From positions 1 to 52,430 of the IMG/VR virus record IMGVR_UViG_3300034065_000062: 52,430 bases of DNA, one strand, 5' to 3'. Positions 28,584 to 50,673 of the stretch are shown piece after piece (position 1 is the first letter of the stretch; each line of letters begins with the position of its first letter). Both the position numbers and the translations under genes were made by a program. The DNA comes from a virus (Duplodnaviria > Caudoviricetes). Under the pieces are notes generated by a model that was given only the letters and a program-made list of their open reading frames with translations, had not been told where the DNA came from and did no database searches.

Positions 28584-28584
28584 G

Positions 28585-29901: not shown

Positions 29902-29903
29902 TG

Positions 29904-30143: not shown

Positions 30144-30179
30144 TATATCCTTAGTTAAAGTTTAATATTTTGCGAAACA

Positions 30180-30207
30180 GCTATATTCACCGAACAGTGA
30201 ATATAGC
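30180..30207. terminator. Hairpin after prkA
   Basis: GCTATATTCAC-CGAACA-GTGAATATAGC perfect 11-bp stem. Confidence 0.55.
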
Positions 30208-30221
30208 CATTTTAGCGAATA

Positions 30222-33839: not shown

Positions 33840-34015
33840 TAGTGCATCATGGTGAAAGATTTGGGCATACCACATTTAGTACAAGTACAAAAAGCAGTTC
33901 TACCAACATGTCTTTTAGTACCATCCTCATCAGTCTCTTCTAATCTGATAGTATCATCAGTTCTCCACTGATGATCATATATACCAAATAGTGATCTAAA
34001 AAATCGACTAAACAT
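33839..34015 (-). CDS. Small hypothetical protein (58 aa) with CxCxxC
   Basis: Read by hand: MFSRFFRSLFGIYDHQW...CTCTKCG...*; stop overlaps the next start. Confidence 0.6.
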   Translation of the reverse strand: MFSRFFRSLFGIYDHQWRTDDTIRLEETDEDGTKRHVGRTAFCTCTKCGMPKSFTMMH

Positions 34016-34017
34016 GA

Positions 34018-34206
34018 TTAACCCTTTGGTTTAATGACAGTACAAGTATCGAGTTCGGTATCAATTTCGACATCGATATATTCACCATATGTCAACCATT
34101 CAGAAGCGGCATCATACATTTCTTCTCTTTCTTCTTCAGAAAGATTAGCTCTTCCTAATGCATCATGAAGTGAATCAGGACCTTTAAAAGTTAGTTTAAG
34201 TTTCAT
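34018..34206 (-). CDS. Hypothetical protein (62 aa)
   Basis: ORF track; operon context. Confidence 0.65.
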   Translation of the reverse strand: MKLKLTFKGPDSLHDALGRANLSEEEREEMYDAASEWLTYGEYIDVEIDTELDTCTVIKPKG

Positions 34207-34207
34207 A

Positions 34208-34525
34208 TTAATTTTGCTTTACGTAAGTTGTACCATCAATGGTGATGGTATTTTGGACAGTGCTATTCATCATAGTCATTGATGTTTCGGAAGATGGACA
34301 GCGGATGATATAAACTGATTTATAATTAACTGGAGTTATGATAGACATTTTACACCCCTTTAAATCGGGAGTTTTTGCTATCTCCGCATTATAATCATTC
34401 ATATACTGTTGAGCTTTTGGAATGGTTTCTGCTTGATACTTATCAGGTTTCGCACTACACCCTGTCAACAAATAGGGAATAAAAAGACTTACTAATATCA
34501 GAATATTAAATAAATGTTTTTTCAT
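34208..34525 (-). CDS. Putative lipoprotein
   Basis: MKKHLF + hydrophobic stretch + lipobox LTGC; likely start at 34525. Confidence 0.7.
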   Translation of the reverse strand: MKKHLFNILILVSLFIPYLLTGCSAKPDKYQAETIPKAQQYMNDYNAEIAKTPDLKGCKMSIITPVNYKSVYIIRCPSSETSMTMMNSTVQNTITIDGTTYVKQN

Positions 34526-34535
34526 TTTGGACTTT

Positions 34536-34787
34536 TTAATTAGGTGGTTTATGTAGATGATCAATACCCATTTGAATATCGAAATCACTGTAGCCTTGCA
34601 TCTCTTTAAGAGTTTGTTCTTCTTCAGCTACAGCTTTATCTAATTCGGCTTGACGGATACGTCTTATCTCTAATGCGATTTCATAATCCGTATATCCATC
34701 TAATTCCATGGACATACGAATATATGATTCTTCTGTGGCCTGATCGGGTTTTAATGCCGACCAGACTTTAGAAAGCCAATTCCACAT
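34536..34787 (-). CDS. Hypothetical protein (83 aa)
   Basis: Start overlaps the Ro60 stop; repeated GY(T/S)D.(E/D)I motif. Confidence 0.65.
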   Translation of the reverse strand: MWNWLSKVWSALKPDQATEESYIRMSMELDGYTDYEIALEIRRIRQAELDKAVAEEEQTLKEMQGYSDFDIQMGIDHLHKPPN

Positions 34788-36397
34788 TAGAAGGACTGAA
34801 TCAATTGTGGTGCTGCTGAATCAAAACCAGCGATATCCAACATACCAGGATCTTTTGGATCGGCAATTGTAAACTTGGTTACTGATGTACCACAAACAAT
34901 CAATTTAGCATCTTTGACATGCTTTTGACGGTAACGTGATAATGCTTCAACAGGTTGCATCTTACCAGCATATGTTTCATTGTCGGTAATAACAACAAAT
35001 TTACTTACATTATCCATACCATTGTCAAGTGCATGACGCATTGGCAATGAGCAATCAGTTGAACCCCAATTGAATTTTTGCATAACAGCCAATACAGCAT
35101 CTAAGCGCATTGATGGAGAGATTTTTAATTCACTCATTCTGTTATTGAAACCACCAATCCAATGGTTAGGTTCACGCTTAGCAACAGCCAAAGCCATAAC
35201 TGCAGCAACTTCAGCTGAAGAAAGGTTTGGAGCACTTGAAACACTTGAGCTCCACATAGAACCAGAACAGTCAACACCAATCAAATGACCAAGGCCAGTT
35301 GATTCAATGAAATTGAATGATTCATAGAAAACATCATTCAATGCATCAAGGATTTGTTGAGATGGAGTCCAAGTTAATGAACCCTTATCACCATGACCGG
35401 TTTTGTATTGGTTGAATGCATTCAAAATAGTGATTGGGTGTACTCGACCACTCTTGATTGCTTCTACATCAGTTAACTTACCAACAATAAGTTGAAGATC
35501 ATTTGACATTGGCTTGATTACACCAATATTAGTCAACTGACCAAGCTTACGGATAAGTGCTGTCATACCCATTGTGTTAACAAGAGCCGACATAACTGCT
35601 GGGTTACGATGCAATTCAGTTGGAATCATTTCCCATGTGATATCAGGATTTGATTCAATCAATTTGATTGCAGTCTTAGCATCAACACCACGCTTCAATG
35701 TTTCAAAGTCAATAAGCAATTGTGGAACTGCTGTATTAGCTTCAATAGCTTCGGCACCCTTTACAGAGTAACGGAACAAAGCAGATTGAACATCATTAGT
35801 TGGTTTAACATGAGCTAAACGCAAGACGTCACGATGTGCCCAACCATTTCGTGATTGGTACTTTAACAATTGAACTGCCAACTTGTCTTCTTTACGCTTT
35901 GTGTACCAGGAAGCAATACCACGTTTTGCAGCGGCATTCCACTTACCAAGTTCATCAATTGCGGCAACAAATTGGAACAAATGAGTACCGATACGGCAAA
36001 CTTTATGCAAGGATGCGTATGCTGCGGCAACAGTTGCTTCATCACCATTGATTGCACATAGTGCAAGAGCAAAGACGGCTGAATCATTTTTAGGTGCACG
36101 GCCAGCTTGTGAGATTTCCACAATACGATTTACTGTTTTGATACCATCAAGTTTAATACAAGCCAATACATTCTTAGCAGCATCTTTGGTAAGTTTTTCA
36201 ACTGATGCATAGTAGAATGGTGATTCACTACCCAAGATTAGGAAACGATCCAAGTAGGACCATGCATCTAATTTGAATACGAATCCACCCGCATGGTTTT
36301 TAACCATTTCGGCTTCACGACCTGAAAGAGGTTGTGTTTGTGGTGTTACTGTTTTTGTTGGCTTTGTTGATACGGTGTCTGAATAGCTAAATGACAT
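34787..36397 (-). CDS. rsr: Ro60/Rsr (TROVE + vWA) RNA-binding protein
   Basis: NHAGGFVF..D....LDRFLILGS, RIGTHLFQF, KYQSRNGW.HRD.LRL.H, VHP, DCSGSM MIDAS, TDCSLPM, ITDNET, IADP.D.GMLDI.GFD. Confidence 0.95.
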   Translation of the reverse strand: MSFSYSDTVSTKPTKTVTPQTQPLSGREAEMVKNHAGGFVFKLDAWSYLDRFLILGSESPFYYASVEKLTKDAAKNVLACIKLDGIKTVNRIVEISQAGRAPKNDSAVFALALCAINGDEATVAAAYASLHKVCRIGTHLFQFVAAIDELGKWNAAAKRGIASWYTKRKEDKLAVQLLKYQSRNGWAHRDVLRLAHVKPTNDVQSALFRYSVKGAEAIEANTAVPQLLIDFETLKRGVDAKTAIKLIESNPDITWEMIPTELHRNPAVMSALVNTMGMTALIRKLGQLTNIGVIKPMSNDLQLIVGKLTDVEAIKSGRVHPITILNAFNQYKTGHGDKGSLTWTPSQQILDALNDVFYESFNFIESTGLGHLIGVDCSGSMWSSSVSSAPNLSSAEVAAVMALAVAKREPNHWIGGFNNRMSELKISPSMRLDAVLAVMQKFNWGSTDCSLPMRHALDNGMDNVSKFVVITDNETYAGKMQPVEALSRYRQKHVKDAKLIVCGTSVTKFTIADPKDPGMLDIAGFDSAAPQLIQSF

Positions 36398-36441
36398 AGT
36401 GTGATACTCCTTTAAGAAACGGCTGGGAAATCCAGCAAAAT

Positions 36442-36789
36442 AATAACATGACTTTCTAAGTCTCCATAACGAAAAGTTGAAATCGGAGATTTCGATATAC
36501 CCCGGTAAGACGCCAATATTGTCCGGCTTACTTACTCATTGAATATACCTACACTAATTTTTCTGACTAGTAACATACTTGATATTCCATCAAGACTATT
36601 CTCCTTAATGCCCGTATTGAGAAGTGACGGTTAATACTATCCCAGTAAAGGGCTGCTGTGGCATATTAATACCCTATTTTCTAAGTGGCTTGTCTTTCAA
36701 CTTGCATACTGTTTTAATAGGTGCATATTTTTCACGTTTGAGATAACCAATGTTCGGTCGGTTAAGAAGACTTAAAAAATCATGTTATT
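36442..36789 (-). ncRNA. Large (~350 nt) Y-RNA-like structured RNA
   Basis: Ends pair over >20 bp with G-U pairs on the minus strand; AACCG-N12-UUAUC motif at 36740-36763; many internal hairpins; directly upstream of Ro60. Confidence 0.7.
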
Positions 36790-36811
36790 TAAAAAAGTTT
36801 GTGTTACATGA

Positions 36812-36928
36812 TATAGATTTAGAAATGAAACAAAGAAGTGTTAATCGTCGTTTGGTTTATTCTGTCGGGCTTTCACTCAACCGATTAAAAGTGGATAATC
36901 AATTAACGTTCGGTTTCTTAAATCTATA
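36812..36928 (-). ncRNA. Y-RNA-like RNA (~117 nt)
   Basis: Terminal stem UAUAGAUUUA/UAAAUCUAUA; GAAAC-C-GAA paired to UUC-UUU-GUUUC (bulged helix); upper stem GUUAAUUG/CGAUUAAC followed by AUUAUCC. Confidence 0.75.
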
Positions 36929-36945
36929 AATTACATATTATTGTA

Positions 36946-36975
36946 ATTATATACTATTTATAGAAATTTGTATAT
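36946..36975 (-). promoter_or_regulatory. Overlapping late (TATAAATA, 36955-36962) and sigma70-like (TATAAT) promoter for the Y-RNA/Ro60 unit
   Basis: Minus strand reads ATATACAAATTTCTATAAATAGTATATAAT. Confidence 0.55.
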
Positions 36976-36987
36976 ATTTAAAATAAA

Positions 36988-37578
36988 TTATACTGGTTTT
37001 GGTTGTGGTGGACATTGATACAAAATTCCAGGAAGCAACATAATACAATCTTCTGGTATTCTTCGCGGATTATTTTTGATATCCATTGTACTAAAGAATG
37101 TAAATTTATAAGGATTACCGTCATGACCTTTGACTGAAATCCATTCAAAAATTGGGGCATCCATAAACATGGCAATTGGTGGATTAGAAGTTTCTATAAC
37201 TTCCAGGATAACTTCTCCACTTTCTGATACTGGTGAACCATTTTGTTCTTGTCGATCAAGTTCATCATAGTATTCACATGCAGCCACAGTATCATCAATA
37301 AATCCTTGGGGATTATTGGGATAATGAATAGCTCGCAAATATTGCAAAGCCATATACTTAATAAATTGTGATATAAGAAGTCCGGCAAAAAATGAACCAA
37401 GGAATGAATACCAGTTAATACCAAAAAAGATGATAGCAATAATAGGTGGAACAATAGCACCAAACCATTTACCAATTATGATCCAGCGTTCATGTGATTT
37501 TAATAACATTTCCATTTTAGGGGTAAGTTTACTCATAGCAGTTCTCCTTTGGAAAGTATATAATTCAATTATACTCAC
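36988..37578 (-). CDS. Membrane protein (2 TM helices)
   Basis: Hydrophobic N-terminal pair; probable start MSKLTP behind an AGGAG RBS. Confidence 0.7.
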   Translation of the reverse strand: MSIIELYTFQRRTAMSKLTPKMEMLLKSHERWIIIGKWFGAIVPPIIAIIFFGINWYSFLGSFFAGLLISQFIKYMALQYLRAIHYPNNPQGFIDDTVAACEYYDELDRQEQNGSPVSESGEVILEVIETSNPPIAMFMDAPIFEWISVKGHDGNPYKFTFFSTMDIKNNPRRIPEDCIMLLPGILYQCPPQPKPV

Positions 37579-37603
37579 CCTATTATTAGAGTGAGTATAA
37601 TCA

Positions 37604-38173
37604 TTAGTGCTTCAAATACTGATGTGCTCTTGATGTTTCTGGAATGAAACTCATTAAGAATTCCATTTGATCAGAAAGAACCTGACGGTTTTGTAACAAC
37701 AAGAATTCTGCACTTGATGGTACATATGGAACATATACCAACTTCATACTACATTCAGATAACAAAGAGTCATTCTTGTGGTTATTACAACGTTCACAAG
37801 CAGATACAACATTCATCCAAGTATCTTTACCACCACGTGATGTCGGAACAATATGATCACGTGTTAATTTGCTGTCCGGAAAGTGCTTAGCACAGTACGC
37901 ACAAATATTGTGGTCACGGCGGAAAAGTTCTTTGTTGCTTAAAGATGGAATAGAAAAACGCTTCTTCCCTTTAGCAGAACCTTTAACGGCAATGATTGAA
38001 GATGTATGGATAATAGATTGCATACCAGTCATGCGGTTTTGACCACCACGAGCTGTGGTATTGCTTTCACCCAATGACCAAGTTACTAATCCTTTAGCAT
38101 GTAAAGTAATAGCATCCTGCCATGAAATCCATTTGATTGGCTGACCTTGAGTATCTAATTGTAATATAAGCAT
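37604..38173 (-). CDS. HNH endonuclease family protein
   Basis: LFRRDHNICAYC...LTRDHIVPTSRGG..TW.NVVSAC..CN..K. Confidence 0.9.
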   Translation of the reverse strand: MLILQLDTQGQPIKWISWQDAITLHAKGLVTWSLGESNTTARGGQNRMTGMQSIIHTSSIIAVKGSAKGKKRFSIPSLSNKELFRRDHNICAYCAKHFPDSKLTRDHIVPTSRGGKDTWMNVVSACERCNNHKNDSLLSECSMKLVYVPYVPSSAEFLLLQNRQVLSDQMEFLMSFIPETSRAHQYLKH

Positions 38174-38174
38174 T

Positions 38175-38303
38175 TTATAACCTGTGTATGATGAGACGTA
38201 AAATTAATAAATCTATAACAAACATATCCCCAAATTCCCCTTCTGCTGGCAGGAATTCAAATCCTAAACTGACTCCCATGATAAATTCTGGCTCGATATA
38301 CAT
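38175..38303 (-). CDS. Small hypothetical protein (42 aa)
   Basis: Read by hand: AAGGA RBS, MYIEPEFIMGVSLGFEFL...IDLLILRLIIHRL*. Confidence 0.55.
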   Translation of the reverse strand: MYIEPEFIMGVSLGFEFLPAEGEFGDMFVIDLLILRLIIHRL

Positions 38304-38383
38304 ATGAATCCTTTATTATAAGTCTAATTAATTATACCACAGAAAATCTATGGTATACCAGATATTTATAATAAACTTTGTAA

Positions 38384-38902
38384 CTATGAGTTACAGTAAA
38401 GTTTCAATGCTTCATATGTAACTTCTGGATTTTTGTACTGATGTAAAATTCCAATACCTTTACCTTTTTGAACCCAATCTGAAATATTATCTTCTCGGTC
38501 ATCAATTAATATGTCACCAGGAGTACAATGTTTCCATTTATCTGCACTATATGGACCCATATTAACGCTAACATCTTTACTTAAATGTTGGGCCATCCAA
38601 TCCCGTTTATCTTGTGCAGCATCTGGCATTGGTGAACGTCTTGGAATTGCAGTAAGAATCTGTACATCTGCTCCATAGGAATTAATCAAATCCCATAAAG
38701 TTTTAGCATAAGGTGTTGGTTTTAATTGAAGATACAAATGTGGAATTGTTTTAAGAAATTCCCACATTGCAGTATCAGCACCTGGACCATCAGCATGATG
38801 GAAAGTTCTACCCATATGAGTTAAAACAAAATCATCAAAGTCTGCAATAACACCATCCATATCACAATAGATGGTATTTACTTTGGGATTAAAATTTCTC
38901 AT
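38384..38902 (-). CDS. HAD-family 5'(3')-deoxyribonucleotidase
   Basis: IYCDMDGVIADF, ILTA, K..W, DILIDDR..NI..W. Confidence 0.88.
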   Translation of the reverse strand: MRNFNPKVNTIYCDMDGVIADFDDFVLTHMGRTFHHADGPGADTAMWEFLKTIPHLYLQLKPTPYAKTLWDLINSYGADVQILTAIPRRSPMPDAAQDKRDWMAQHLSKDVSVNMGPYSADKWKHCTPGDILIDDREDNISDWVQKGKGIGILHQYKNPEVTYEALKLYCNS

Positions 38903-39081
38903 GGTGTTGTACCAAGTACTAATGTATCTGGATTAGCTGCTTGTTTAGCATCACGTTCCGCTTTTAGTTTAGCAATAGTTTGTGTTTGATATTCCTGGTA
39001 TGCTTTGTGTGCGGCTTCATTTCGTGCAATTGCTGTAGCTTTACGTTCTTCGTAAGTACCGCGTTGTTTAGCTTGACCCAT
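38899..39081 (-). CDS. Hypothetical protein (60 aa)
   Basis: AAGGA RBS; MGQAKQRGTYEERKA N-terminus. Confidence 0.7.
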   Translation of the reverse strand: MGQAKQRGTYEERKATAIARNEAAHKAYQEYQTQTIAKLKAERDAKQAANPDTLVLGTTP

Positions 39082-39098
39082 GATTATTTCCTTTTATG

Positions 39099-39548
39099 TT
39101 ATGATTGAATATATGTATATGTTGCTTCAACTATTTTGTGATGTTTTACATCACCTTCCTTTAAAAATTCTTCTTTTGATAACCACATTACCTTACCTGT
39201 TTCAAAGTGAGGTTTATCAAAATCATCCTTGCTTTTAACTTGACCACAAAAAATGATCAATTTATATAAATCTTTGGCACCTTGCATTTCATCATCAGAT
39301 ACAAGATGAATTGTATCATGTATTAGATTAGATATTTTAAATCCAAGTTCTTCTTTAGCTTCCCTTAATGCTGCAGCTTTACTGGTTTCACCTGGATCAA
39401 CATTACCCTTTGCAATTTGTGGTTTGGTTCCACCAAATTTAGGATCAGATGGAACCATAAACATAAACAGTGGTTCATCATTTTCAAAAATATAAGGGAT
39501 AAACCCAGCCTTTTTTTTTGCACGCATTGCTATTTCACTTAATTTCAT
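39099..39548 (-). CDS. NUDIX hydrolase
   Basis: Nudix box KGNVDPGETSKAAALREAKEELG. Confidence 0.88.
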   Translation of the reverse strand: MKLSEIAMRAKKKAGFIPYIFENDEPLFMFMVPSDPKFGGTKPQIAKGNVDPGETSKAAALREAKEELGFKISNLIHDTIHLVSDDEMQGAKDLYKLIIFCGQVKSKDDFDKPHFETGKVMWLSKEEFLKEGDVKHHKIVEATYTYIQS

Positions 39549-39556
39549 TTAAATCC

Positions 39557-40228
39557 TTAATCTGTTAATGACATTTTTGGTACTGATTCCCGATATCGAC
39601 GGATATTAAATTCATTTCTTACCTCAGCACATTTTAATAAATTTTCTGATAATACATATTGATATTTTTGATAAGAAGTATCATCATTTTTAAAATACTT
39701 ATCCATTTCTTCAATAGAATAAAATGTTACCATCGAATGTCCAACTTTTGTATTGTCTGAAGTATCATATAAAGTTATTGTATGTCCTAATTTAAACAAA
39801 TTTTTCCATATATTGTAACCTTCATCACTTAAAGTTTTATCACTCATCATACGAATACTTTTATCAGTATCTTTCAATATGGCACTATATAAATCACTAG
39901 CATATGGGGCCTTACCTTTTAATTTTGGATTTTTACCTGTCATTCTAACAACTAAACATTGATGTTCTTTATGTAATTCAGTGCCAAGTTGAATTTGTCC
40001 ATCTTTTTCATACCAGTATACAATAGCAGAACCAGCACTAATTTTTTTTAAATTATTACCTAAATCTTCTGCTTTAATACCATGTTTTATAAAGTCTTTA
40101 ATATTATATTCTAACATATCAAAGGTTTCAAAAGTTCCTAATCCTTCTGGCATTTCAGAAAGCCATGACTCATTAAACATAGTTCTATCACCTATATGCT
40201 TAAGTGGGTTTATTTCATCTAGTTTCAT
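39557..40228 (-). CDS. Hypothetical protein (223 aa)
   Basis: MKLDEI N-terminus; SD.TLSDEG..IW motif suggests a GNAT-like fold (weak). Confidence 0.7.
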   Translation of the reverse strand: MKLDEINPLKHIGDRTMFNESWLSEMPEGLGTFETFDMLEYNIKDFIKHGIKAEDLGNNLKKISAGSAIVYWYEKDGQIQLGTELHKEHQCLVVRMTGKNPKLKGKAPYASDLYSAILKDTDKSIRMMSDKTLSDEGYNIWKNLFKLGHTITLYDTSDNTKVGHSMVTFYSIEEMDKYFKNDDTSYQKYQYVLSENLLKCAEVRNEFNIRRYRESVPKMSLTD

Positions 40229-41028
40229 TTATTCCTTGATTTTTTCTTTAATATTTTAGTTTTGGCAAATTGCCAAAATATATCACTGGGTGCAAGATAG
40301 TTTCTTATTTTTATTAAGTCATCCCATCTAGTATGGGTATTTGCTGAATCCAAAATAACAACAGTATCTCTTTGATTATTTATATTTAATATAACAACTA
40401 AGCAACCACCTGAAGCATTAATAAAACCTGTTTTTGATAATATAAAATCCCAACCTGGTTTATGTAATAATGGATTGGTTGACTTATAATGACCATAAGA
40501 AGTTTCTTCTGTTGTGGTAATAATATTTAATAATGGTTCAGAAATCATATTAGCAAATAATGCTAAATCCTTTGCTGAAGCATGATTCATCATACTCAAA
40601 CCAGAAGGTTCTTCCAAATAAATGGAATATAAACCACGGTCCATTGCTGCTTGATTTACTTTTTTAATAATAAAATCAGTACCATGTTCCCGAGCTAATG
40701 CATAAATTGCTTGGTTATTGGAAGGTATCAAAGCCAACTCAAGTAGTTGTTGTTCAGTCAGCATTGTATTAGTTTTGATATGAGCTCGCATATTAGCAGA
40801 ATCTTCCTTCTTAACTAATACACTATTACCAGCAAGTAAAACAGGAACTATCTGTTCAGCAACTAACAGTTTAGAAATTGAGGCAATTGGGCGAATAGTA
40901 TCTTCATCATGAGCAAGAATAATTTGACCTGCTTCATCCAAAACAACATAAGATTTGGCAGATATATTTGGAACTTGTGCAGATACTAGTGAACTAACTA
41001 ATAATAATAAAATAGCAAGTTTATTCAA
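40225..41028 (-). CDS. D-Ala-D-Ala peptidase (peptidase S11, PBP7/DacA-like), secreted
   Basis: Signal peptide; SxxK (ASISKL), SxN (PSNN), KTG (SKTGF), EPSGL. Confidence 0.88.
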   Translation of the reverse strand: MNKLAILLLLVSSLVSAQVPNISAKSYVVLDEAGQIILAHDEDTIRPIASISKLLVAEQIVPVLLAGNSVLVKKEDSANMRAHIKTNTMLTEQQLLELALIPSNNQAIYALAREHGTDFIIKKVNQAAMDRGLYSIYLEEPSGLSMMNHASAKDLALFANMISEPLLNIITTTEETSYGHYKSTNPLLHKPGWDFILSKTGFINASGGCLVVILNINNQRDTVVILDSANTHTRWDDLIKIRNYLAPSDIFWQFAKTKILKKKSRNK

Positions 41029-41309
41029 AAAACTGGTTCCTTATAATCTGGTAATACAACAGACTGATGACCAACATGAATAAGTCGAACTTTCCGACCA
41101 CCAACACGATTACGAAGATTTGGATGCCATGCGATTTCAATAGCTTGAATATAATCTTGTTGAGTTACTTCAGTAAGTCGATATATTTGCATACCATTAT
41201 ACATACAAGTTGATGCAATAGCAATATAGGCACCAACTTCTAATTTGGTACCAAGCATATCATAGGTAGGCTTACCCTTCTCAAGGGCTTCTTTAATCTT
41301 AGCATGCAT
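41025..41309 (-). CDS. Hypothetical protein
   Basis: AAGGAG RBS. Confidence 0.7.
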   Translation of the reverse strand: MHAKIKEALEKGKPTYDMLGTKLEVGAYIAIASTCMYNGMQIYRLTEVTQQDYIQAIEIAWHPNLRNRVGGRKVRLIHVGHQSVVLPDYKEPVF

Positions 41310-41364
41310 AAAAACTCCTTAGTCAAGGAATTATTATATCATGTTTGACAAGATTAAGATATGA

Positions 41365-41452
41365 AAATAGGGCATTTTCATTGGGGGTCTTGGTACGTAT
41401 TTATCCAAGATTAACAGTGACTTGCGCCCCCGCCGATGAAAATGCCCTATTT
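41365..41452 (-). ncRNA. Unidentified structured element (17-bp stem capped by a 3-way junction)
   Basis: AAATAGGGCATTTTCAT perfect inverted repeat enclosing GGGG/CCCC, a GGC-GCAA-GUC hairpin and UCUUGG/CCAAGA. Confidence 0.5.
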
Positions 41453-41455
41453 ATT

Positions 41456-41674
41456 TTATACAGTTGTATAGTCTTCAACATGAACACTTGCAACACGTTT
41501 TACCATGTTGTTGTTGATCATGTATTGCAGAACACCACGAACATCTAACCAATTTTTGATAGTCATTTCAGCTGATACAGCTTCAACGATTTTCTTCCAT
41601 GGTGTTGGTTCAGCAGTAATAGTCTTAGTCAAAATTGCAAGAACTTGATGCTGTTTGTTTGCAGAGATAGCCAT
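41456..41674 (-). CDS. Hypothetical protein (72 aa), possibly winged-helix-like
   Basis: AAGGA RBS; preceded by a promoter-like sequence. Confidence 0.7.
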   Translation of the reverse strand: MAISANKQHQVLAILTKTITAEPTPWKKIVEAVSAEMTIKNWLDVRGVLQYMINNNMVKRVASVHVEDYTTV

Positions 41675-41710
41675 GATAATTTCCTTGTGGTTGTTTTCAA
41701 TCGATAAGTA

Positions 41711-41740
41711 ATTATACTTCTATCTGAAAGCAAAGTACAC
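41711..41740 (-). promoter_or_regulatory. Early/sigma70-like promoter GTGTAC-N18-TATAAT
   Basis: Minus strand GTGTACTTTGCTTTCAGATAGAAGTATAAT; a similar GTATAC...TGGTATAAT lies near 47626-47655. Confidence 0.55.
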
Positions 41741-41757
41741 AATTAAATTGTAACGGT

Positions 41758-42429
41758 TTACCACAACAAATCAAAGTTGCCAGAAAGTACTTTACTAACC
41801 TGTGCAGTCTTTCCAGTTATATGATCTGTAACAGTATTATCTTGGAATCTATAAGTACGGACCTTATCCCCACGCATACCTGAACCAACTTGATTCTTTC
41901 TATCTTGAGAAACCAACTGCTGTTCCTTGCTGAAGTGTGTGGAATTTAGTTTTAATAATAAAGCTTGGGTAGCTTCATTAAGTGAATTTTCCCGACTACG
42001 ACATTGTGCAGTTGAGACAATACCGGTTTTGATATGTGTAAGACGGCATGAGTTCTGGTGTTTATTGCGATGTTGACCACCACTACCAGTACCAGAGTAC
42101 CATTCTATTTTAAAGTCTTTTTGATTGAACTCGATCGCTTTTATTTCAGTGGGATCAATAACAGCAACTGTTACAGTTGAAGTATGAACTCTACCTTTGC
42201 GTTCGGTTGGGGGAGTGCGTTGGATTCTTTGCCCACCTTTTTCATTATCCAATCCAGATAAATCCTTGCCTTCTACTTCTATGGATATGACACCCTTAGT
42301 AGTTTCGACAAGGTGGTGCTTTCAGCCAACTCGTTGGAAGTGTTTAATGTAGGAGTTAGCTAAATCTTTTGAGAAGAGTTTAGCATCATCACCGCCTTCA
42401 GCAAATCTGATTTCTAGTATTTTTTTCAT
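41758..42429 (-). CDS. RF1-type peptide chain release factor lacking domain 1, with in-frame TGA at codon 36 (42322-42324)
   Basis: AAGGA RBS, MKKILEIRFAEGGDDAKLF...QRVG*KHHLV...; QRTPPTERKGRVHTS (PxT motif), GSGGQHRNK, KVRTYRF. Confidence 0.85.
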
Positions 42430-42438
42430 TTTATTTCC

Positions 42439-42935
42439 TTAGTTTTTTAATGGTACTTTATTTGCATATTCTTCTATTGCTTTAATATCACTAGCTACTA
42501 GCTTTCCTTTTGCAAGAAGCATATATTCACCATTAGGGGTTTGTACCCATTTAATAACTTGTTCATAGGATGATCCTTTACAATACCATGTTGCTAATTT
42601 TTCATATAATGATTTTCTTGATTCAATAGCACCATTTTTATTATTAATATCAAACATTATTATATCTGGGTTTAGTTCTCTAATTTTAGGAACCATTGAA
42701 TTAAATAGTGCGCCGAATACTTTGGCAGCCATTTTTTTTCAGCTGCTACTGTCCATTCCCCATCTCTGGTAAAACCAAAATCAATAAGGCTATAGTCTTT
42801 ACTTAATTTAAGTTCATATTCATCTAAATGAATTTTATATTTATGATCTTCTAAGTCAAATATACCATAATAAGTATTATCAACTTTTTTCCATTTAACA
42901 TCTGGATTGGTATCAAAAATTTCATTTAAAAGCAT
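42439..42935 (-). CDS. Hypothetical protein apparently split by a frameshift in an A8 run (42732-42739)
   Basis: Track ORFs 42672-42935 and 42439-42732 join into one ~165-aa ORF if the run is A9. Confidence 0.55.
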
Positions 42936-43022
42936 TTAATATCCTCTGTATATCCCATTTAACAAGATACTGCCATGAATAATGTTTCATTGGGAAATGC
43001 TTATCAAGCCATTCATAAATCA

Positions 43023-43484
43023 TTACCAAGACCACCAATGTTTTTTGTTGTTTATAAAGTCAATTCTTGTTTCTTCTCTAAGTACAGGATCTTTTATTTT
43101 TTCACAAATACCCATTGCTTGTTCCATATTAAAGGAATCTTTCATCCCCTTAACTGTTGCTGCAAATAAAGAATCTCTAACTGTATCCCCTATTTCTGTT
43201 TGAAATTTCAATGCTTGTGCATCTTTTAACGCAATAGTAATTTCCAGTTTAGTACGACCTGTATCATCAAAAGCACCTTCAAATTTTGCTTGAAGTTTTT
43301 TAGTAATGGAATCATAACCATCAGCTTCTAAATCAATACCATACATAGTACTAATTTCAGCTTCAGTATATCCCTGTTTCATTTCCTTAGGCCAATATAA
43401 TTTTGTTCTTAAGGTACCAAGATATAATTCAAACTCTTCCAGTGGATTAGTTGATTGAGTTGCTTGAAAATTTATAAACATCAA
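43023..43484 (-). CDS. Hypothetical protein
   Basis: GAGG RBS; 153 aa. Confidence 0.7.
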   Translation of the reverse strand: MMFINFQATQSTNPLEEFELYLGTLRTKLYWPKEMKQGYTEAEISTMYGIDLEADGYDSITKKLQAKFEGAFDDTGRTKLEITIALKDAQALKFQTEIGDTVRDSLFAATVKGMKDSFNMEQAMGICEKIKDPVLREETRIDFINNKKHWWSW

Positions 43485-43591
43485 TTACCTCTAATAAGTT
43501 TCTTTACAACAACATAGTGATAATTTTGAGATGCAAATTTTTCATCCGTACGCGCCATCATTATTCCTATTTGACTAATTACATAAGCCAT

Positions 43592-43855
43592 TCAATTTCC
43601 CTTGTAATGGATATCTGCATGTTCTACAGTTCCGAATGTCATAAATGCAGATTCAAGTTCTTTCAATGCTGTACGAATTACTTCAGCATTTTCCAGGTCT
43701 TCCACACGTTTATCAAGTTCATCTGTAAAAATCTTAATAGCCACATCAGCTAAACAAGTAGGGAGGTTCATATGACAGCCATTCCTTTTGGCATAAAGCA
43801 GTCCAGGAATAAAATAGCCTACGGCTTCCCATACACAGTCTTGTGAATATTTCAT
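43592..43855 (-). CDS. Hypothetical protein (87 aa)
   Basis: GGAG RBS; TGGTATAAT upstream. Confidence 0.65.
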   Translation of the reverse strand: MKYSQDCVWEAVGYFIPGLLYAKRNGCHMNLPTCLADVAIKIFTDELDKRVEDLENAEVIRTALKELESAFMTFGTVEHADIHYKGN

Positions 43856-43894
43856 AATAGTTCTCCCATTTAGAGTTCTATTATACCACAGATT

Positions 43895-45370
43895 TCAATA
43901 GGTCACTAAGAAATTTTCAAATGACCAAGTATTAGTTTTATTTAATTCAGGTTTGAATAGCATATTGCGTTCATCAAGTGGAGTCCAATCTGATTGGATA
44001 CTTGCGATCGGCCCAAGATAAGGTTTAGCCACTTCAAGAATTTCTTCAAATGGTAAATCTTCTGGTTCTTTATATCCCTCTTTTGGATTATTTAACATCC
44101 AAACAATAACACCTAATAAAGAAGCAACTACTTGTACTGATGTTGCACTTTCATTAGGAATTAATTCACGGGCTTCATTGATGTCTAATTGACTACCATA
44201 CCACCAAGCATTACAGCCATGTCCCATTAGAAGAACACCAAGTTCATCACGGCCACTAACTATTTCATCTTTGACAATACGTTTAGCATGTTGCATTTCT
44301 AATTCTTGGCCACGGAATTCATGGACAGAAACAATAGCACAATCAGCTGGTTGATATGTATAGTGAACAGTTGGACGGAAAGTGACATTAGTACCATTAC
44401 TTACAGAGAAGTATTCGGAAATAGTAACAGCTTCAGAGTGCTGTACTAACATACCATTATAACTACCACCACGTGGAACCCATGATTTAATTAATGTAGC
44501 AACACCTGGTTGTGTTAAGAAGATAGCATTACGAGGACCTGATTGATGAGCAACACCATTCTCTGGAAGTTTATCTTCATGTGTACCCCAACCTAATTCA
44601 GATGGAGCACGACCTTCTGCCCAGAAGCCTTCACAGCTCCAAGTATTAGTAAACTCACCCATGACTTTCGGTCGATCGATAACTTGTGTATCACGTTCAG
44701 CAATGTGTACAACTTTGGTACCAGTCTTCTCCATAAGTTTTGCCCATTCTTCACGGGACTTAGGAACTTCAGTTTTCATACCCATTGCTTCAGCAATATC
44801 TAATAGAGCAGCTTTTGTAAAGTGGGTAACTAAACCTGGATTTGCACCATGAGTAACACAGGAAGTTGCGGCTCCTTTATTTTTATATGGAGCAACAGCT
44901 TTACGTATTTCTTGATGAGCAAAGTAAAGAGTACGTTCTTCCATTTTAGGAATAGATTCATCTGGTTCATCTTCCCAACGTTCTATACTGGTATCACAGT
45001 ACATAACATCATGATCAAGACACCATTTAACAATAGCAATACCATCAATATTAAGACTAACATTGATGAGTAAATCTCCAGCACTTAAGTGTTCTGAGAG
45101 AGTAGAATCTAAATTACTTTTAACAATTTTTAATGGGATGTATTTGATATCTGTATCACTATGGCGGGTTTTAAACAATTGAGCATGTTCACCAGCTTCA
45201 ATGACAGTGATTTGATTTGGGTTGATCCCAATGTGACGTAATACTAAAGGAAGGATGGCTTGACCGACGGAACCGTATCCGATGATTAAAATGCGACCTT
45301 TATGATCAATGTACTTTTTGTGCAAAGGCGCAGATAGTGTTGTTGTTTGTGCTATTTCGTGGAGCTTCAT
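43895..45370 (-). CDS. hss: Homospermidine synthase
   Basis: IIGYGSVG Rossmann motif, HGANPGLV.HF, VHIAERDTQ, NTWS.EG, ELGWGTHE, H.EA.TI, RPTVHY.Y.P, G.DELGVLL. Confidence 0.92.
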   Translation of the reverse strand: MKLHEIAQTTTLSAPLHKKYIDHKGRILIIGYGSVGQAILPLVLRHIGINPNQITVIEAGEHAQLFKTRHSDTDIKYIPLKIVKSNLDSTLSEHLSAGDLLINVSLNIDGIAIVKWCLDHDVMYCDTSIERWEDEPDESIPKMEERTLYFAHQEIRKAVAPYKNKGAATSCVTHGANPGLVTHFTKAALLDIAEAMGMKTEVPKSREEWAKLMEKTGTKVVHIAERDTQVIDRPKVMGEFTNTWSCEGFWAEGRAPSELGWGTHEDKLPENGVAHQSGPRNAIFLTQPGVATLIKSWVPRGGSYNGMLVQHSEAVTISEYFSVSNGTNVTFRPTVHYTYQPADCAIVSVHEFRGQELEMQHAKRIVKDEIVSGRDELGVLLMGHGCNAWWYGSQLDINEARELIPNESATSVQVVASLLGVIVWMLNNPKEGYKEPEDLPFEEILEVAKPYLGPIASIQSDWTPLDERNMLFKPELNKTNTWSFENFLVTY

Positions 45371-45441
45371 TTGTTAATCCAGATGATAAAAGTATATCAT
45401 ATTTATTGAATTAACAAGGTGATGTAGAATTTAGTAAGATT

Positions 45442-45515
45442 TGGTGCTCTGTACCGGTTACAATCCGATGCCTAATCCATACCAGGGATTTGTACTGTCA
45501 TTATACTAACAGAGC
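45442..45515 (-). tRNA. tRNA-Thr(GGT), atypical T-loop
   Basis: Cloverleaf, loop CUGGUAU, encoded CCA; T-loop AUUGUAA. Confidence 0.75.
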
Positions 45516-45521
45516 TTTGTT

Positions 45522-45593
45522 TGGAACCCAACTGCAGAGTTGAACTGCATCAACAGGCTTAGAAGGCCCATGTCCGAATCCCTCGGGTCGGGT
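45522..45593 (-). tRNA. tRNA-Arg(TCT), non-canonical short D-arm
   Basis: Acceptor ACCCGAC/GUUGGGU, loop CUUCUAA, T-loop UUCAACU, CCA. Confidence 0.75.
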
Positions 45594-45597
45594 ATTG

Positions 45598-45828
45598 TTA
45601 TGTGCTAAGTTTATTAAACTTATCTGTTGCCATTTTTAATTCACGATGAAGTTTATCCTGATTTCTACGGGCCTTATTCATCTGTACTTGAACAGCACCA
45701 ATTATTAGTTCAGCTTCTTTATATTTCTTACGAGCAACTTTATATTCCTGTTCGGCTTTATTATAAGCAGATGTTTTGGCTGCTTTAATAGCTCGTTCTT
45801 TAGCTGCGGCTTCATGATCAAATTGCAT
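45598..45828 (-). CDS. Small coiled-coil protein
   Basis: 76 aa, Ala/Lys-rich helical sequence. Confidence 0.65.
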   Translation of the reverse strand: MQFDHEAAAKERAIKAAKTSAYNKAEQEYKVARKKYKEAELIIGAVQVQMNKARRNQDKLHRELKMATDKFNKLST

Positions 45829-45830
45829 AA

Positions 45831-46028
45831 TTATTTTTGATAGACCGTTCTTTTACCGGTGATTTCACCAGTCTGAGCATTTTTAATAGTAACAGTTTGT
45901 TTAGAGACTTTCTTGGAATTAATGATACCACCAAGTTTATGATCACGATCATACATATCTCCAAGTTTTAATGGAGAACCAGTAACGACCCCTTTAAAAG
46001 GATCCGGCATTATTTCTCTAACTTTCAT
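45831..46028 (-). CDS. Hypothetical protein (65 aa)
   Basis: GAGG RBS, MKVREI N-terminus, TATAAATA at 46057-46064. Confidence 0.7.
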   Translation of the reverse strand: MKVREIMPDPFKGVVTGSPLKLGDMYDRDHKLGGIINSKKVSKQTVTIKNAQTGEITGKRTVYQK

Positions 46029-46068
46029 ATTACACCTCTAAAATAAGATTATCTCTTATTTATATGTT

Positions 46069-46142
46069 TGGCCTGTCAAGTAGGAATCGAACCCACATCA
46101 AAGCGTTTGGAGTGCCTTATTCTACCACTGAACTATTGACAT
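46069..46142 (-). tRNA. tRNA-Trp(CCA)
   Basis: Loop CUCCAAA, G73, CCA; D-stem GUUC/GAAU (A24); A31-C39 mismatch. Confidence 0.85.
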
Positions 46143-46148
46143 ATAGTA

Positions 46149-46343
46149 TTACTTTTTACGTTCTTTAGGAAAGAACCCAGCACAGCATTCATCTGTTAAA
46201 CTGGCTATTCCTTGTTTATGACCTTCAAGAGATTTACCACAAACTGATATAGTTTTAGTTTTACCAGTAGCAGTTTGTGTCATGACAACATCAAAATCTT
46301 GACCATGCATTACAAAGTCAAATGTGTATTGTGTAGCTAACAT
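46149..46343 (-). CDS. Hypothetical protein (64 aa)
   Basis: GAGG RBS before MLATQY; the track's longer version overlaps tRNAs. Confidence 0.65.
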   Translation of the reverse strand: MLATQYTFDFVMHGQDFDVVMTQTATGKTKTISVCGKSLEGHKQGIASLTDECCAGFFPKERKK

Positions 46344-46358
46344 AATAACCTCTAAAAA

Positions 46359-46432
46359 TGGAGTCGGGTACCGGAGTTGAACCGATCTAAGTGATTTTGC
46401 AGACCACTGCATGGCCGATGTGCTAACCCGAC
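46359..46432 (-). tRNA. tRNA-Cys(GCA)
   Basis: Loop CUGCAAA, U73, CCA. Confidence 0.85.
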
Positions 46433-46438
46433 ATTGTT

Positions 46439-46512
46439 TGGAGTCCCTGGATGGTAACGCGCCACCTTCCATAGTTTTGCAGACTATCGCATTACTTTTA
46501 TGCTACAGGGAC
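46439..46512 (-). tRNA. tRNA-Cys(GCA), second copy, atypical T-loop
   Basis: Loop CUGCAAA, U73, CCA; T-loop CGCGUUA. Confidence 0.75.
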
Positions 46513-46518
46513 ATTATT

Positions 46519-46620
46519 TGGCAGAGGTGGAGGGAATTGAACCCCCATCGAAGGTTTTCCTAAAAATACTATTACGAATATTTTTAGGAGACCCCTATAC
46601 TGCCATTGTACTACACCTCT
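46519..46620 (-). tRNA. tRNA (Trp-type body) with a 28-nt hairpin inserted in the anticodon loop
   Basis: Canonical acceptor, D and T arms, G73, CCA; loop reads CUCC[UAAAAAUAUUCGUAAUAGUAUUUUUAGG]AAA. Confidence 0.7.
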
Positions 46621-46628
46621 ATAATTCT

Positions 46629-46701
46629 TGGCACCCAATGAAGGAGTTGAACCTTCTTACTCAGATTTCGAAGACCTAAGACCGGTTCCGCCGGATCGGG
46701 T
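46629..46701 (-). tRNA. tRNA-Arg(TCG), non-canonical short D-arm
   Basis: Acceptor ACCCGAU/AUUGGGU, loop CUUCGAA, CCA. Confidence 0.75.
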
Positions 46702-46709
46702 ATAAATTC

Positions 46710-46784
46710 TGGTTCCCACTGATGGATTTGAACCATCGACCCACGCGTTATCAACACGGCGCTCTACCACTGAGCTAAGCGGGA
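46710..46784 (-). tRNA. tRNA-Ile(GAT)
   Basis: Canonical D and T arms, loop UUGAUAA, CCA. Confidence 0.85.
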
Positions 46785-46788
46785 ATAG

Positions 46789-46871
46789 TAACAACAAATT
46801 GCTTTTTAGGGCAGGAGCAGTTGAGGGCGTTGTCTTAAAAGGATAATCCTCTGTCGCAAATCCGGTTGTTA
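46789..46871 (-). ncRNA. Small Y-RNA-like element inside the tRNA array
   Basis: Terminal UAACAAC/GUUGUUA stem; AACCG-N16-UUAUCC at 46841-46867; strand is less certain because one alternative stem favours the plus strand. Confidence 0.55.
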
Positions 46872-46936
46872 AATTCTTAATTCTTTACTATAACTAATAA
46901 ATATTCTTATGTAAACATTTATTTATGGAGATTCCC

Positions 46937-47203
46937 ATGACAGCACCAGTTTTAACACCAGTACCAATGTATCCAATTGGATCAGTTATTTATGTTGTAT
47001 CTGCAGCATCTTTTGGTATTGCTATTGCTACAATTACAGCTGTTGATGTTGCAAGTGTAAATCCAACTGCACCACCAGTAATAACATATTCAGTTAGATT
47101 TTCTAACCCAGTACGTTCAGCAAATATTCAACAGTTTGATTCATCAATGGTATTCCCTGATGTAACTACTGCAGTTGCTGCATATGCTCCACTTATTAGT
47201 TAA
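46937..47203 (+). CDS. Hypothetical protein (88 aa), possible virion protein
   Basis: GGAG RBS before the ATG at 46937; TAAATA box upstream; only + strand gene in the tRNA region. Confidence 0.65.
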   Translation: MTAPVLTPVPMYPIGSVIYVVSAASFGIAIATITAVDVASVNPTAPPVITYSVRFSNPVRSANIQQFDSSMVFPDVTTAVAAYAPLIS

Positions 47204-47205
47204 GA

Positions 47206-47386
47206 TATATAAAGTTGTAGTTTGAGACAATACGGTGGGAGTTGCACCACACATTAAGGCCCTGTCCGGGCCTTTTCTTATCTATTAGAAGACATATTTC
47301 AATACAGTCTTTAACCCGTCAAAGTCAATACTATATTGCCAAACCAACCTGTTGCTCGAGTTGACGTGCTGTTACAACTTTATATA
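47206..47386 (-). ncRNA. tRNA/tmRNA-like structured RNA enclosed by a 14-bp terminal stem
   Basis: TATATAAAGTTGTA inverted repeat; inner GGCAAUAU/GUAUUGUC stem, T-arm-like GG-UGCAACU-CC and two internal hairpins. Confidence 0.5.
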
Positions 47387-47444
47387 ACCTAAAAATTACT
47401 CTGTTCGCGTTACGCAAACGAACTACAAAATAGATACAAGAAAT

Positions 47445-47572
47445 TGGTGGTGACGGAAGGGATCGAACCTCCACTAGCCTGTTATGAGTAGGATAATCAA
47501 TAAGCGACCGGTTGAGTTAACAACAAAAAATGCAATCGATGTTTTACTGTGCTGCCATTACACTACATCACC
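47445..47572 (-). ncRNA. tRNA(CAT) carrying a 54-nt Y-RNA-like insertion in the anticodon stem
   Basis: Acceptor GGUGAUG/CGUCACC-A-CCA, D and T arms and loop CUCAUAA all intact; insert carries AACCG-N12-UUAUCC. Confidence 0.75.
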
Positions 47573-47660
47573 ATTTAAATTTTTATCAAAGAACTATTAA
47601 AATCCCAAGATTCAAACTATAAAGAATTATACCATACAGTTTGAATCTTGTATACATCAT

Positions 47661-47990
47661 TTAAACTTTATCTGGATATTTACTATCTAAAAAATCGATA
47701 TAAGCATGTGGGCTCATACCAGGTTCTAATACTTCAACATTCTTGAAACCATTGGCTTCAGTGATTAAACTTTCAGATGCATCAATGGCACCAGCATATT
47801 TGCGGAAACCGGGTTTATTCATCATCTCACCAGTAGCAGGATCAATGGAACCCCATTCAGTCCAATCTGTTTTACTACGATTGTCAATAGGTTCACATGC
47901 ATAAGTTTTACCAGTACGATTTGAATAAACAATAAATCGTCCAGTGTCATCAGTATTAGTTAGGAATTTTGTTCTTAGTTCAGGATTCAT
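47661..47990 (-). CDS. Hypothetical phage protein (109 aa)
   Basis: DTGRFIVYS.RTGKTY..EPI...WG..DPATG motif-rich ORF. Confidence 0.75.
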   Translation of the reverse strand: MNPELRTKFLTNTDDTGRFIVYSNRTGKTYACEPIDNRSKTDWTEWGSIDPATGEMMNKPGFRKYAGAIDASESLITEANGFKNVEVLEPGMSPHAYIDFLDSKYPDKV

Positions 47991-48011
47991 ATAAGGCCTT
48001 ATAGGTTAGGC

Positions 48012-50598: not shown

Positions 50599-50673
50599 TG
50601 GTGGTGATAGTTGGAGTCGAACCAACGTAGCCTACTTTATGAGAGTAGTTCATAACCATTCTGACATATCACC
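50599..50673 (-). tRNA. tRNA(CAT): elongator Met or Ile2
   Basis: Loop CUCAUAA, paired G1-C72, A73, CCA. Confidence 0.8.

Follow-up and report, generated by a model that had tools for sequence, protein, structure and literature searches.

What are four similarly built sequence elements doing in a phage genome that also encodes Ro60, two of them directly upstream of the Ro60 gene and two within a tRNA array? The question is posed by the IMG/VR virus record IMGVR_UViG_3300034065_000062, which is complete within the window (i.e. the whole stretch of DNA analyzed, 52,430 nt) and amounts to an estimated 15% of a genome. Ro60, which serves in RNA quality control, is conserved and is an autoantigen in humans; Y RNAs are its obligate partners. 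For the question of how their variable domains choose effectors, this phage clade offers a single docking module that one genome combines with four or more natural bodies. A preliminary description had proposed that the four elements form a Y-RNA-like family in which one Ro60-binding module is joined to different bodies. With a probability of roughly 0.8, we read the window as a fragment of a jumbo peat phage that encodes a Ro60 orthologue together with at least four cognate Y RNAs sharing a predicted Ro60-docking module.

The Ro60 gene (34787..36397, minus strand) encodes a protein of 536 amino acids with a TROVE domain and a Ro60-type vWA domain, identified by Pfam (vWA_Ro60, E = 7.5e-53; TROVE, E = 2.4e-32) and by matches to solved animal and Deinococcus Ro60/Rsr chains of the PDB (9nen, 1yvp, and 2nvo; E between 1e-100 and 4e-96). 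Because Ro60 homologues with 59-97% identity sit on metagenome contigs of up to 358 kb, the window appears to derive from a jumbo phage; its stretch was found in peat metagenome sequencing runs. Neither blastn of 34787-37100 against phages nor a search for related loci with the single Ro60 protein returned a match. An alignment of 29 Ro60 proteins (A1) led to 80 viral loci, all of which were oriented with Ro60 on the plus strand.

The pattern AACCG-N{10,18}-TTATC matches exactly four times in the 52,430 nt, at 36742-36763 (element 1), 36894-36915 (element 2), 46842-46867 (element 3), and 47492-47513 (element 4), each time on the minus strand, i.e. the strand of Ro60. Counted from the Ro60 start, two copies are found 345-518 nt upstream, and the other two are inside the tRNA array, where the preliminary description had placed them; the AAC/GUU pairing and the U-rich stretch that it reported are likewise present in all four. 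UUAU is found in every copy, and the spacer from CCG to UUAUC measures 12 nt in elements 1, 2, and 4 and 16 nt in element 3, compared with 10-12 nt in relatives. Shuffled sequences contained 0.48 copies on average (sd 0.75), and 1 of 100 shuffles reached four. The count by itself is modest; as far as sequence can tell, it is the comparative data that make the case decisive.

When the 80 loci and the window were searched for CCG-N10-13-TTATC (duplicate loci kept), 185 matches were located on the Ro60 strand vs. 48 on the opposite strand. An exact TT plus the reverse complement of the preceding 5-mer occurred within 450 nt downstream for 68 of the 185 matches, vs. 1 of the 48. The helix 5-mers, which end at the first C of the motif, vary widely among phages (e.g. 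GGAAC, CGAAC, GAAAC, TCCAC, CGGGC, and AGAGC). Because these differing 5-mers keep their downstream UU-GNNNN complements, the motif can be read as the 5′ strand of a covarying helix, in which NNNNC is followed by a bulged C and a G and stands opposite UU-GNNNN. The spacer had been thought to form a stem of its own; it provides instead the 5′ strand of an upper stem whose partner strand is distal.

A covariance model of open modules (R1) was built from 20 short modules of the relatives (A3), with the window excluded; its consensus is GCCGaA...GGUUAUC. Applied to the window with filters off, R1 recovered element 2 (36817-36927, 39.3 bits, E = 2.2e-8) and element 3 (46781-46879, 22.3 bits, E = 0.001), with no further window match below E = 0.2. 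Across 75 sources (1.35 Mb, both strands), all 52 matches at E ≤ 0.01 fell on the Ro60 strand, and 32 of these were new. The 51 matches within loci comprise 42 located up to 2.13 kb upstream of Ro60, seven located up to 0.9 kb downstream, and two outliers. In the alignment of the 52 rows (A4), 88.6% of cells were paired, vs. 59.8% after shuffling and 38-47% with slid partners. Compensatory changes were seen in 13 of 15 pairs, the closing C-G pair was present in 49 and the following G.U pair in 48 of the 52 rows, and an exact CCG-N-UUAUC with a spacer of 10-12 nt was retained in 43. At least one module was found by some detector in 56 of the 80 loci. A search of IMG/VR with a 16-mer box yielded 41 matches and no new loci: six were known Ro60 loci, five of them with a Y motif just upstream, and the remaining 35, with neither motif nor Ro60, correspond to about the chance level for a 16-mer.

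The linkage to Ro60 extends to whole genomes. Five complete relatives (97-100%; 342-368 kb) contain 15 R1 modules, which are distributed over all five genomes and are all on the Ro60 strand. The modules located 38-96 kb from Ro60 are without exception in tRNA arrays, with 4-14 tRNAs detected by ARAGORN in each of seven regions, and the chimera model R2 described below finds more chimeras in distant arrays (e.g. L128 3857-3984, 89.7 bits). One genome (G004) has no R1-type module beside Ro60, and its three R1 matches lie in a tRNA array 96 kb off. Neither a TROVE match nor an R1 match was obtained in the large cultured phages KVP40, GAP32, RaK2, phiKZ, and Aeh1 (1.46 Mb). The co-occurrence of motif and TROVE genes, which the preliminary description had suggested as a check, amounts to module matches in 5/5 genomes with Ro60 vs. 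0/5 phages without it. Given modules up to 96 kb away in tRNA arrays, searches confined to the Ro60 neighborhood undercount Y RNAs, and Y RNAs probably account for some of the apparent gaps and odd tRNAs that the tRNA arrays of phages show.

So many modules in tRNA arrays far from Ro60 might also suggest that the module is read by another phage factor, e.g. a nuclease or ligase acting on tRNA-array transcripts, and that its link to Ro60 reflects shared ancestry. Rnl1- and Rnl2-type RNA ligases are indeed encoded by all complete relatives, and the control phages that lack Ro60 are also unrelated. We nevertheless consider this highly improbable: the module has published features of a Ro60 site, i.e. 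a bulged helix whose 5′ strand bears a GNCGAA resembling GGUCCGA, and it clusters tightly beside Ro60 in phages whose Ro60 proteins are 40-97% identical, and also in actinophages. Ro60 is retained as the predicted reader of the module.

In cultured actinophages, modules of the form CCGAAG..GGUUAUC are located upstream of annotated Ro genes, and open modules occur in Microbacterium phage Cece and Mycobacterium phage Dandelion. Cece (OP068343.1; L085) has an unannotated Y module at 647-730, between annotated tRNA-Ile and tRNA-Ala genes (R1, 29.7 bits, E = 4e-6) and 2.2 kb upstream of an annotated Ro-like gene. As a cultured phage, it would allow Y RNAs located in arrays to be tested. Among the more distant phages with Ro60 (43% identity), L074 (with copies at 9206-9351 and 8666-8821) and L077 have five to seven motif copies arrayed upstream of Ro60, and some of these (e.g. 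L074 9206-9351 and L077 8880-9045) appear by eye to be canonical permuted YrlA RNAs with a T arm, a closed acceptor stem-loop, and a D arm.

Element 1 (36443..36787, minus strand) is a large Y-like RNA of 324-345 nt, here termed type B, and was delimited by folding, by comparison with relatives, and by RNA contigs (36457-36780). A terminal stem of ~26 bp bearing the predicted Ro60 site encloses a multi-hairpin domain of ~250 nt. The closing duplex has a calculated energy of -31.5 kcal/mol, AAC/GUU falls within the ~26-bp stem, and CUUUUC precedes GUU. Compared with shuffled sequences, the fold of the 543-nt leader region has a z value of -4.65. Among relatives, the closing stem lies directly 5′ of the bulged C in all 24 instances of type B (23 loci and the window); all but one of these stems are long (17-26 bp) and share no sequence relationship from phage to phage, the exception being L038 with a weak stem (-12.6 kcal/mol). 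Type B lengths range from 280 to 392 nt, and the 3′ end falls roughly 45-90 nt before Ro60 in loci whose Ro60 start is at 10001; in the window, the end of element 1 and the Ro60 start codon are 46 nt apart. Conserved ends were identified on the 5′ side (CCG..GUUGGUUAUC) and on the 3′ side (CUGAAAUCUCCGAC..UUUUGU). The upper stem covaries (GUUGG/CCGAC, AUUGG/CCAAU, and AUCGA/UCGAU; AUUGG/CCGAU in the window), and 10 of the 13 consensus pairs show compensatory changes. The interior contains a conserved GC-AGUU-GAAAG-AC-AAGC hairpin and a further hairpin followed by GUGUAGG; past these two small hairpins, the alignment gave no reliable consensus. The idea of an RNase P RNA, raised by a box GUUGAAAGACAAGCC together with GGGUGCCAG in one relative, was rejected, the second box not being conserved, and E-value scans with Rfam of the window leader and of L018 5540-5920 gave no RNase P or other relevant match.

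Ten peat metatranscriptome runs contain 5-14% of the words of 34787-37000, and four of these runs (X4, X6, X7, and X8) were mapped on 34000-48000. Contigs of element 1 with zero differences were obtained in all four (X4, 36457-36780; X6, 36505-36751; X7, 36506-36756; X8, 36502-36755), and the X6 contig runs into adapter. In each run the part covered is element 1, which makes up 15% of the 2.2-kb stretch; no RNA contig was obtained for the Ro60 open reading frame (ORF) in any of the four. These contigs fit a stable RNA greatly outnumbering the Ro60 mRNA, and the conserved ~250-nt domain is abundant enough to assemble from environmental RNA. For elements 2, 3, and 4, no contig was found at ≥99% identity in the four runs mapped, which is no evidence of absence. 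Pieces of RNA placed on 46730-46777 showed 2-3 differences and were unlike the window beyond; they were discarded as tRNAs of other organisms.

The position of elements 1 and 2, directly upstream of Ro60 on the same strand, with element 1 ending 46 nt before the start codon, would also suit a cis-acting leader of the Ro60 mRNA that autoregulates the gene through binding of Ro60 to its own 5′UTR, and the location just upstream of Ro60 is kept in relatives. Separate RNAs are nevertheless favored by several observations: (i) the RNA contigs end inside element 1 and never enter the ORF, in 4/4 runs; (ii) a terminator-like hairpin with a U-rich tail (36422..36436, minus strand; found by consensus scan) lies between element 1 and the Ro60 ribosome-binding site, the leader region having two terminator-like sites vs. 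0.5 in shuffles; and (iii) like modules occur downstream of Ro60 (eight matches) and in tRNA arrays 38-96 kb away. A role as mRNA leader instead of separate RNAs is therefore judged very unlikely. Elements 1 and 2, taken as separate Y RNAs, would probably be made from one promoter upstream of Ro60 and end before the Ro60 mRNA.

The X4 contig has a further property. Its record of 354 nt has identical first and last 30 letters and contains a direct joint from 36457 to 36780, i.e. it is a closed 324-nt cycle (depth 6.9) with no branch to flanking sequence. The stem as predicted joins 36780 to 36451 and 36457 to 36774, which places the ends 6 nt apart. The cycle was seen in one contig of one run; besides an RNA circle, a tandem copy carried by a related strain or a chimera arising in the library could account for it. 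In each of the five complete relatives (G001-G005), a single RNA-ligase domain of the Rnl1 type is accompanied by two or three of the Rnl2 type, and RtcB was found in none of the five; no RNA ligase was found in the window, which is uninformative as the window covers 15% of a genome. Because of the closed X4 cycle and the Rnl1 and Rnl2 ligases of the relatives, we tentatively entertain, while thinking it the less probable case, that element 1 is a closed circle and that the Ro60 system of this clade comprises several Y RNAs transcribed from arrays and matured by tRNA enzymes, including a possibly chargeable tRNA-Y chimera. A ligase of the tRNA-repair type might seal the ends of element 1 into a hexaloop and so produce an exonuclease-proof scaffold for Ro60. 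The circular form, if true, would be the first circular Y-type RNA and would tie Ro60 to phage RNA-repair ligases.

Element 2 (36812..36928, minus strand) is a hairpin-type Y RNA of ~115 nt, termed type A, which is matched by R1 and backed by the covariation in A4. It consists of a lower stem, the predicted Ro helix GAAAC/GUUUC, a bulged C at 36912, an upper stem in which GUUAAUUG pairs with CGAUUAAC, the GAUUAUC sequence, and an apical domain of ~50 nt; CUUCUUU precedes GUUUC. In close relatives, type A is located roughly 440-560 nt, and up to about 1.2 kb, upstream of Ro60. A promoter-like TATACA-17-TATAAT (36946..36974, minus strand) lies upstream of element 2 and matches the consensus at 10 of 12 positions, in a region where the count of such sites is not above that of shuffles.

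Element 4 (47445..47572, minus strand; 128 nt), identified by the Rfam tRNA model and by model R2, joins the module to a complete tRNA body. It has an acceptor stem of 7 bp, an encoded CCA, a D arm, and a T arm with a UUCGAUC loop. The place of the anticodon arm is taken by an upper stem and a loop-capped predicted Ro60 helix, UUU-GUUG-loop-CAAC-C-GG (about 47509-47527). The strand order of the Ro60 site is reversed here: the U-run and GUUG come first, followed by a 6-nt loop, CAAC, the bulged C, GG, the upper-stem strand, and GAUUAUC. The Rfam tRNA model scores 38.3 bits (gathering threshold, 29) and skips 60 nt at the position of the anticodon arm. The chimera family comprises 16 genes in 11 records, with R2 scores of 73-107 bits; the training set of R2 included the window copy (94.5 bits), and L046 2030-2172 was outside it. 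In the chimera alignment, 94.5% of cells were paired vs. 69.4% after shuffling, and compensatory changes were detected in 23 of 29 pairs and in all five helices. The intron mode of ARAGORN made 36 calls, which were mostly two neighboring tRNAs fused; they served as leads and were checked by eye and with R2. A promoter-like TATACA-17-TATAAT with a TG extension (47626..47654, minus strand; 10/12 match, count not above shuffles) is located 54 nt upstream of element 4.

Encoded CCA and canonical acceptor, D, and T arms would be expected of a working tRNA, e.g. a tRNA(CAU), carrying an intron-like or extra-arm insert, with the Y module regulating it, marking it, or being removed; the RNA would then be no Y RNA in its own right. 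After the motif, the window copy can form CCU-A/C-AGG, a weak 3-bp arm whose 7-nt loop CUCAUAA has U33-like and A37-like positions, so that excision of about 54 nt leaves a tRNA-like anticodon arm, and one relative (L060 9265-9393) has UCGA-CUUCUAA-UCGA. In other chimeras (L059 9669-9798, L064 1882-2018, L062, and L066), however, the anticodon stem flanks the entire insert and there is no 7-nt loop. The 3-bp stem of element 4, with its A/C mismatch, is weak, the window already encodes a tRNA-Met(CAU) at 50599-50673, a tRNA-splicing endonuclease was neither sought nor found, and the insert is a covarying Ro60 site in 16 of 16 chimeras. Because the residual anticodon-like hairpin is not family-wide, a decoding tRNA is kept as a rival, and an unlikely one. 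Element 4 is best described, from its sequence and that of its family, as the YrlA design encoded directly in tRNA order.

Element 3 (46789..46871, minus strand; 83 nt) is an open Y module recognized by R1. Its predicted Ro helix UAACAAC/GUUGUUA has a bulged C at 46864, AAUUU stands before GUUGUUA, and a domain of ~45 nt completes the element. Its end is separated by 4 nt from a tRNA-Ile(GAU) that follows directly on the 3′ side (46710..46784, minus strand; ARAGORN, Rfam tRNA 63.8 bits), and the RNase P site of this tRNA would define the 3′ end of element 3. A promoter-like TTTACA-17-TATAGT (46887..46915, minus strand; 10/12 match, count not above shuffles) is found 8 nt upstream of the R1 match. 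Modules between tRNAs are also present in relatives, i.e. at L003 1052-1204 (with a T-arm-like hairpin), at L015 840-942, and, by eye only, at L012 ~5-80. The minimum free energies of elements 3 and 4 are no better than those of shuffles (z = -0.8 and -0.1), and the case for both elements therefore rests on comparison.

With the comparative evidence and the element 1 contigs taken together, the proposed Y-RNA-like family tied to the phage Ro60 is supported, and comparison likewise supports the notion of one conserved Ro60-site module joined to four differing variable domains. Several points speak against this reading. The five control phages are far from the clade on which R1 was trained. The RNA runs were chosen for containing words of 34787-37000, their evidence consists of contigs without strand or true ends, and the peat samples may come from one campaign. 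Pairing is favored in A4 and A7, since both alignments were made to fit the structure of the model. No module was found by any detector in 24 of the 80 loci, some of which are incomplete or duplicates, while others have their modules in another part of the genome. Of the four elements, the case is weakest for element 3, with a rough E of 0.001 and an atypical spacer of 16 nt, and its UUAUC can fall in a local hairpin loop. The Rfam comparison suggested in the preliminary description gave the elements no family other than tRNA: in Rfam 15, whose Y RNA models were not verified, the matches at E ≤ 10 within 36400-37200 and 45300-47700 were to tRNA or at chance level, and scans of seven related loci in gathering mode returned only tRNA.

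The docking module would consist of a helix ending in C-G, a bulged C, a G.U pair and an A-U or G.U pair against the U-run, and an internal loop, continuing into an upper stem of about one helical turn and the seemingly invariant GRUUAUC. Four bodies would be mounted on it: an apical domain of ~50 nt in element 2, the conserved multi-hairpin domain of ~250 nt in element 1, a domain of ~45 nt in element 3, and a complete tRNA in element 4. The Ro60 ring is predicted to dock on the module, and the variable body may recruit or gate a second factor, by analogy PNPase (as in bacteria and Thermus phage phiLo) or, for tRNA-like bodies, a tRNA-recognizing factor. Elements 3 and 4, being in the tRNA array, would be matured like their tRNA neighbors by RNase P, 3′ trimming, and CCA enzymes. 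Such a modular RNP adaptor, put forward in the preliminary description as an inference from the four copies, is the accepted model for Y RNAs and no new principle.

How do these elements compare with known systems? Chen et al. (2014; PMC4201824) describe Y RNAs encoded next to Ro60 in more than 250 bacteria and phages. In YrlA RNAs of bacteria and phages, they report the motif GNCGAAN0-1G and, at the start of the V loop, a conserved YUAY; the motif resembles GGUCCGA, which Xenopus Ro60 contacts in the 5′ strand of a bulged helix. According to the same paper, RNase P cleaves the YrlA of M. smegmatis, which also acquires CCA, and D. radiodurans makes Yrn2 within a precursor that it shares with tRNA-Asp and Yrn1. 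YrlAs are described as similar to tRNAs in circular permutation, their acceptor stem being closed and a free CCA lacking, and some are possibly processed towards canonical tRNAs, as the authors suggest (Wang et al. 2018, bioRxiv 10.1101/312249). In Thermus phage phiLo, two Y-like RNAs upstream of the phage Ro60 gene bind phiRo60 and host PNPase (PMC12135203). Y RNAs beside a phage Ro60 are thus already known, and binding in phiLo has already been shown.

Judged against these YrlA features, the window elements are similar in that they lie on the Ro60 strand, have a GNCGAA-type motif on the 5′ strand of the helix, and offer the UUAU of GRUUAUC as the YUAY; element 4 adds a tRNA-like body with D and T arms. 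The helix layout agrees with the Ro60 site of Chen et al. (2014), and the signature appears to be that of YrlA as much as of animal Y RNAs. They differ in three respects: the tRNA domain of element 4 is unpermuted, with an open 7-bp acceptor stem plus CCA and a loop-capped Ro60 helix; elements 1-3 have no D or T arm detectable with the tRNA model (E ≤ 10); and the initial G of the YrlA motif is an A in the window copies, which read ACCGAAC(G) in element 2 and ACCGA or ACCGG elsewhere. By description (PMC4201824), YrlB of Salmonella and M. smegmatis and Yrn2 resemble element 2 in being a second Y RNA by Ro60 with a long hairpin, and Yrn2 resembles elements 3 and 4 of the tRNA array in being made together with a tRNA; compared by description only, element 2 differs from YrlB and Yrn2 by its branched apical domain of ~50 nt. 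Yrl1 and Yrl2 of phiLo share with the window the arrangement of two Y-like RNAs just upstream, the stem-bulge-stem, and the CGAA motif; the passages of PMC12135203 considered mention neither copies in a tRNA array nor a chimera with tRNA nor a form of 300 nt. Their phiRo60 is distant from the Ro60 of the window (E = 6e-7, vs. 1e-100 for animal and Deinococcus Ro60).

The preliminary description had called the signature animal-type. Animal Y RNAs do share the bulged helix with GGUCCGA on its 5′ strand (PMC4201824), and the division into a Ro60 stem and a variable loop domain. The same signature is, however, that of bacterial and phage YrlA (GNCGAA...YUAY), and it recurs in the consensus of the relatives and in the actinophage modules beside Ro genes. 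The animal likeness is therefore a motif held in common with bacterial YrlA and does not attest to a link with animals in particular. UUAUC is conserved in the Y RNAs of animals and in nematode sbRNAs, which have no tRNA-like body. They are about 70-115 nt long and are transcribed by RNA polymerase III from single genes.

Within the full-text literature searched, no unpermuted tRNA-Y chimera and no Y modules as regular residents of phage tRNA arrays were encountered, the possibly relevant supplement of PMC4201824 lying outside the search, and no Y RNA of ~300 nt or of circular form was described. Two features stand out as most interesting: a YrlA in tRNA order, and a large Y-like RNA that is abundant and possibly circular. 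Together, the four predicted partner RNAs would extend the range of bacterial-type Y RNAs. The tRNA body in normal order bears on the published idea that YrlAs originate from tRNA genes or could be processed towards canonical tRNAs.

The window contains a second odd tRNA-like gene (46522-46620, minus strand) with normal acceptor, D, and T arms (Rfam tRNA, 48.5 bits). A 13-bp AU-rich hairpin extension (z = -3.7) replaces its anticodon loop, and it has no Ro60 motif. Run X6 yielded an exact piece of 133 nt at 46940-47072 with adapter on both sides, which points to a discrete short fragment. It overlaps the only plus-strand ORF of the stretch (46925-47203; 92 amino acids, hydrophobic, no Pfam match), which is situated between elements 3 and 4. 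A weak match to a tymovirus tRNA-like 3′ element (47219-47293, minus strand; 21.4 bits, E = 0.15) coincides with a GC-rich hairpin, which scores as a terminator on the plus strand (47256-47274), followed by a T-arm-like hairpin.

Elsewhere in the window, a 164-amino-acid ORF (41758-42252, minus strand) with an RF-1 domain and only the end of PCRF represents a truncated gene resembling class-I release factors. The region 26362-32183 (minus strand) encodes a trio of PrkA (AAA and kinase), DUF444/YeaH, and SpoVR, a module of the bacterial stress or sporulation type. The window also encodes DHFR, guanylate kinase, NUDIX, an NT5C nucleotidase, and a D-Ala-D-Ala carboxypeptidase.

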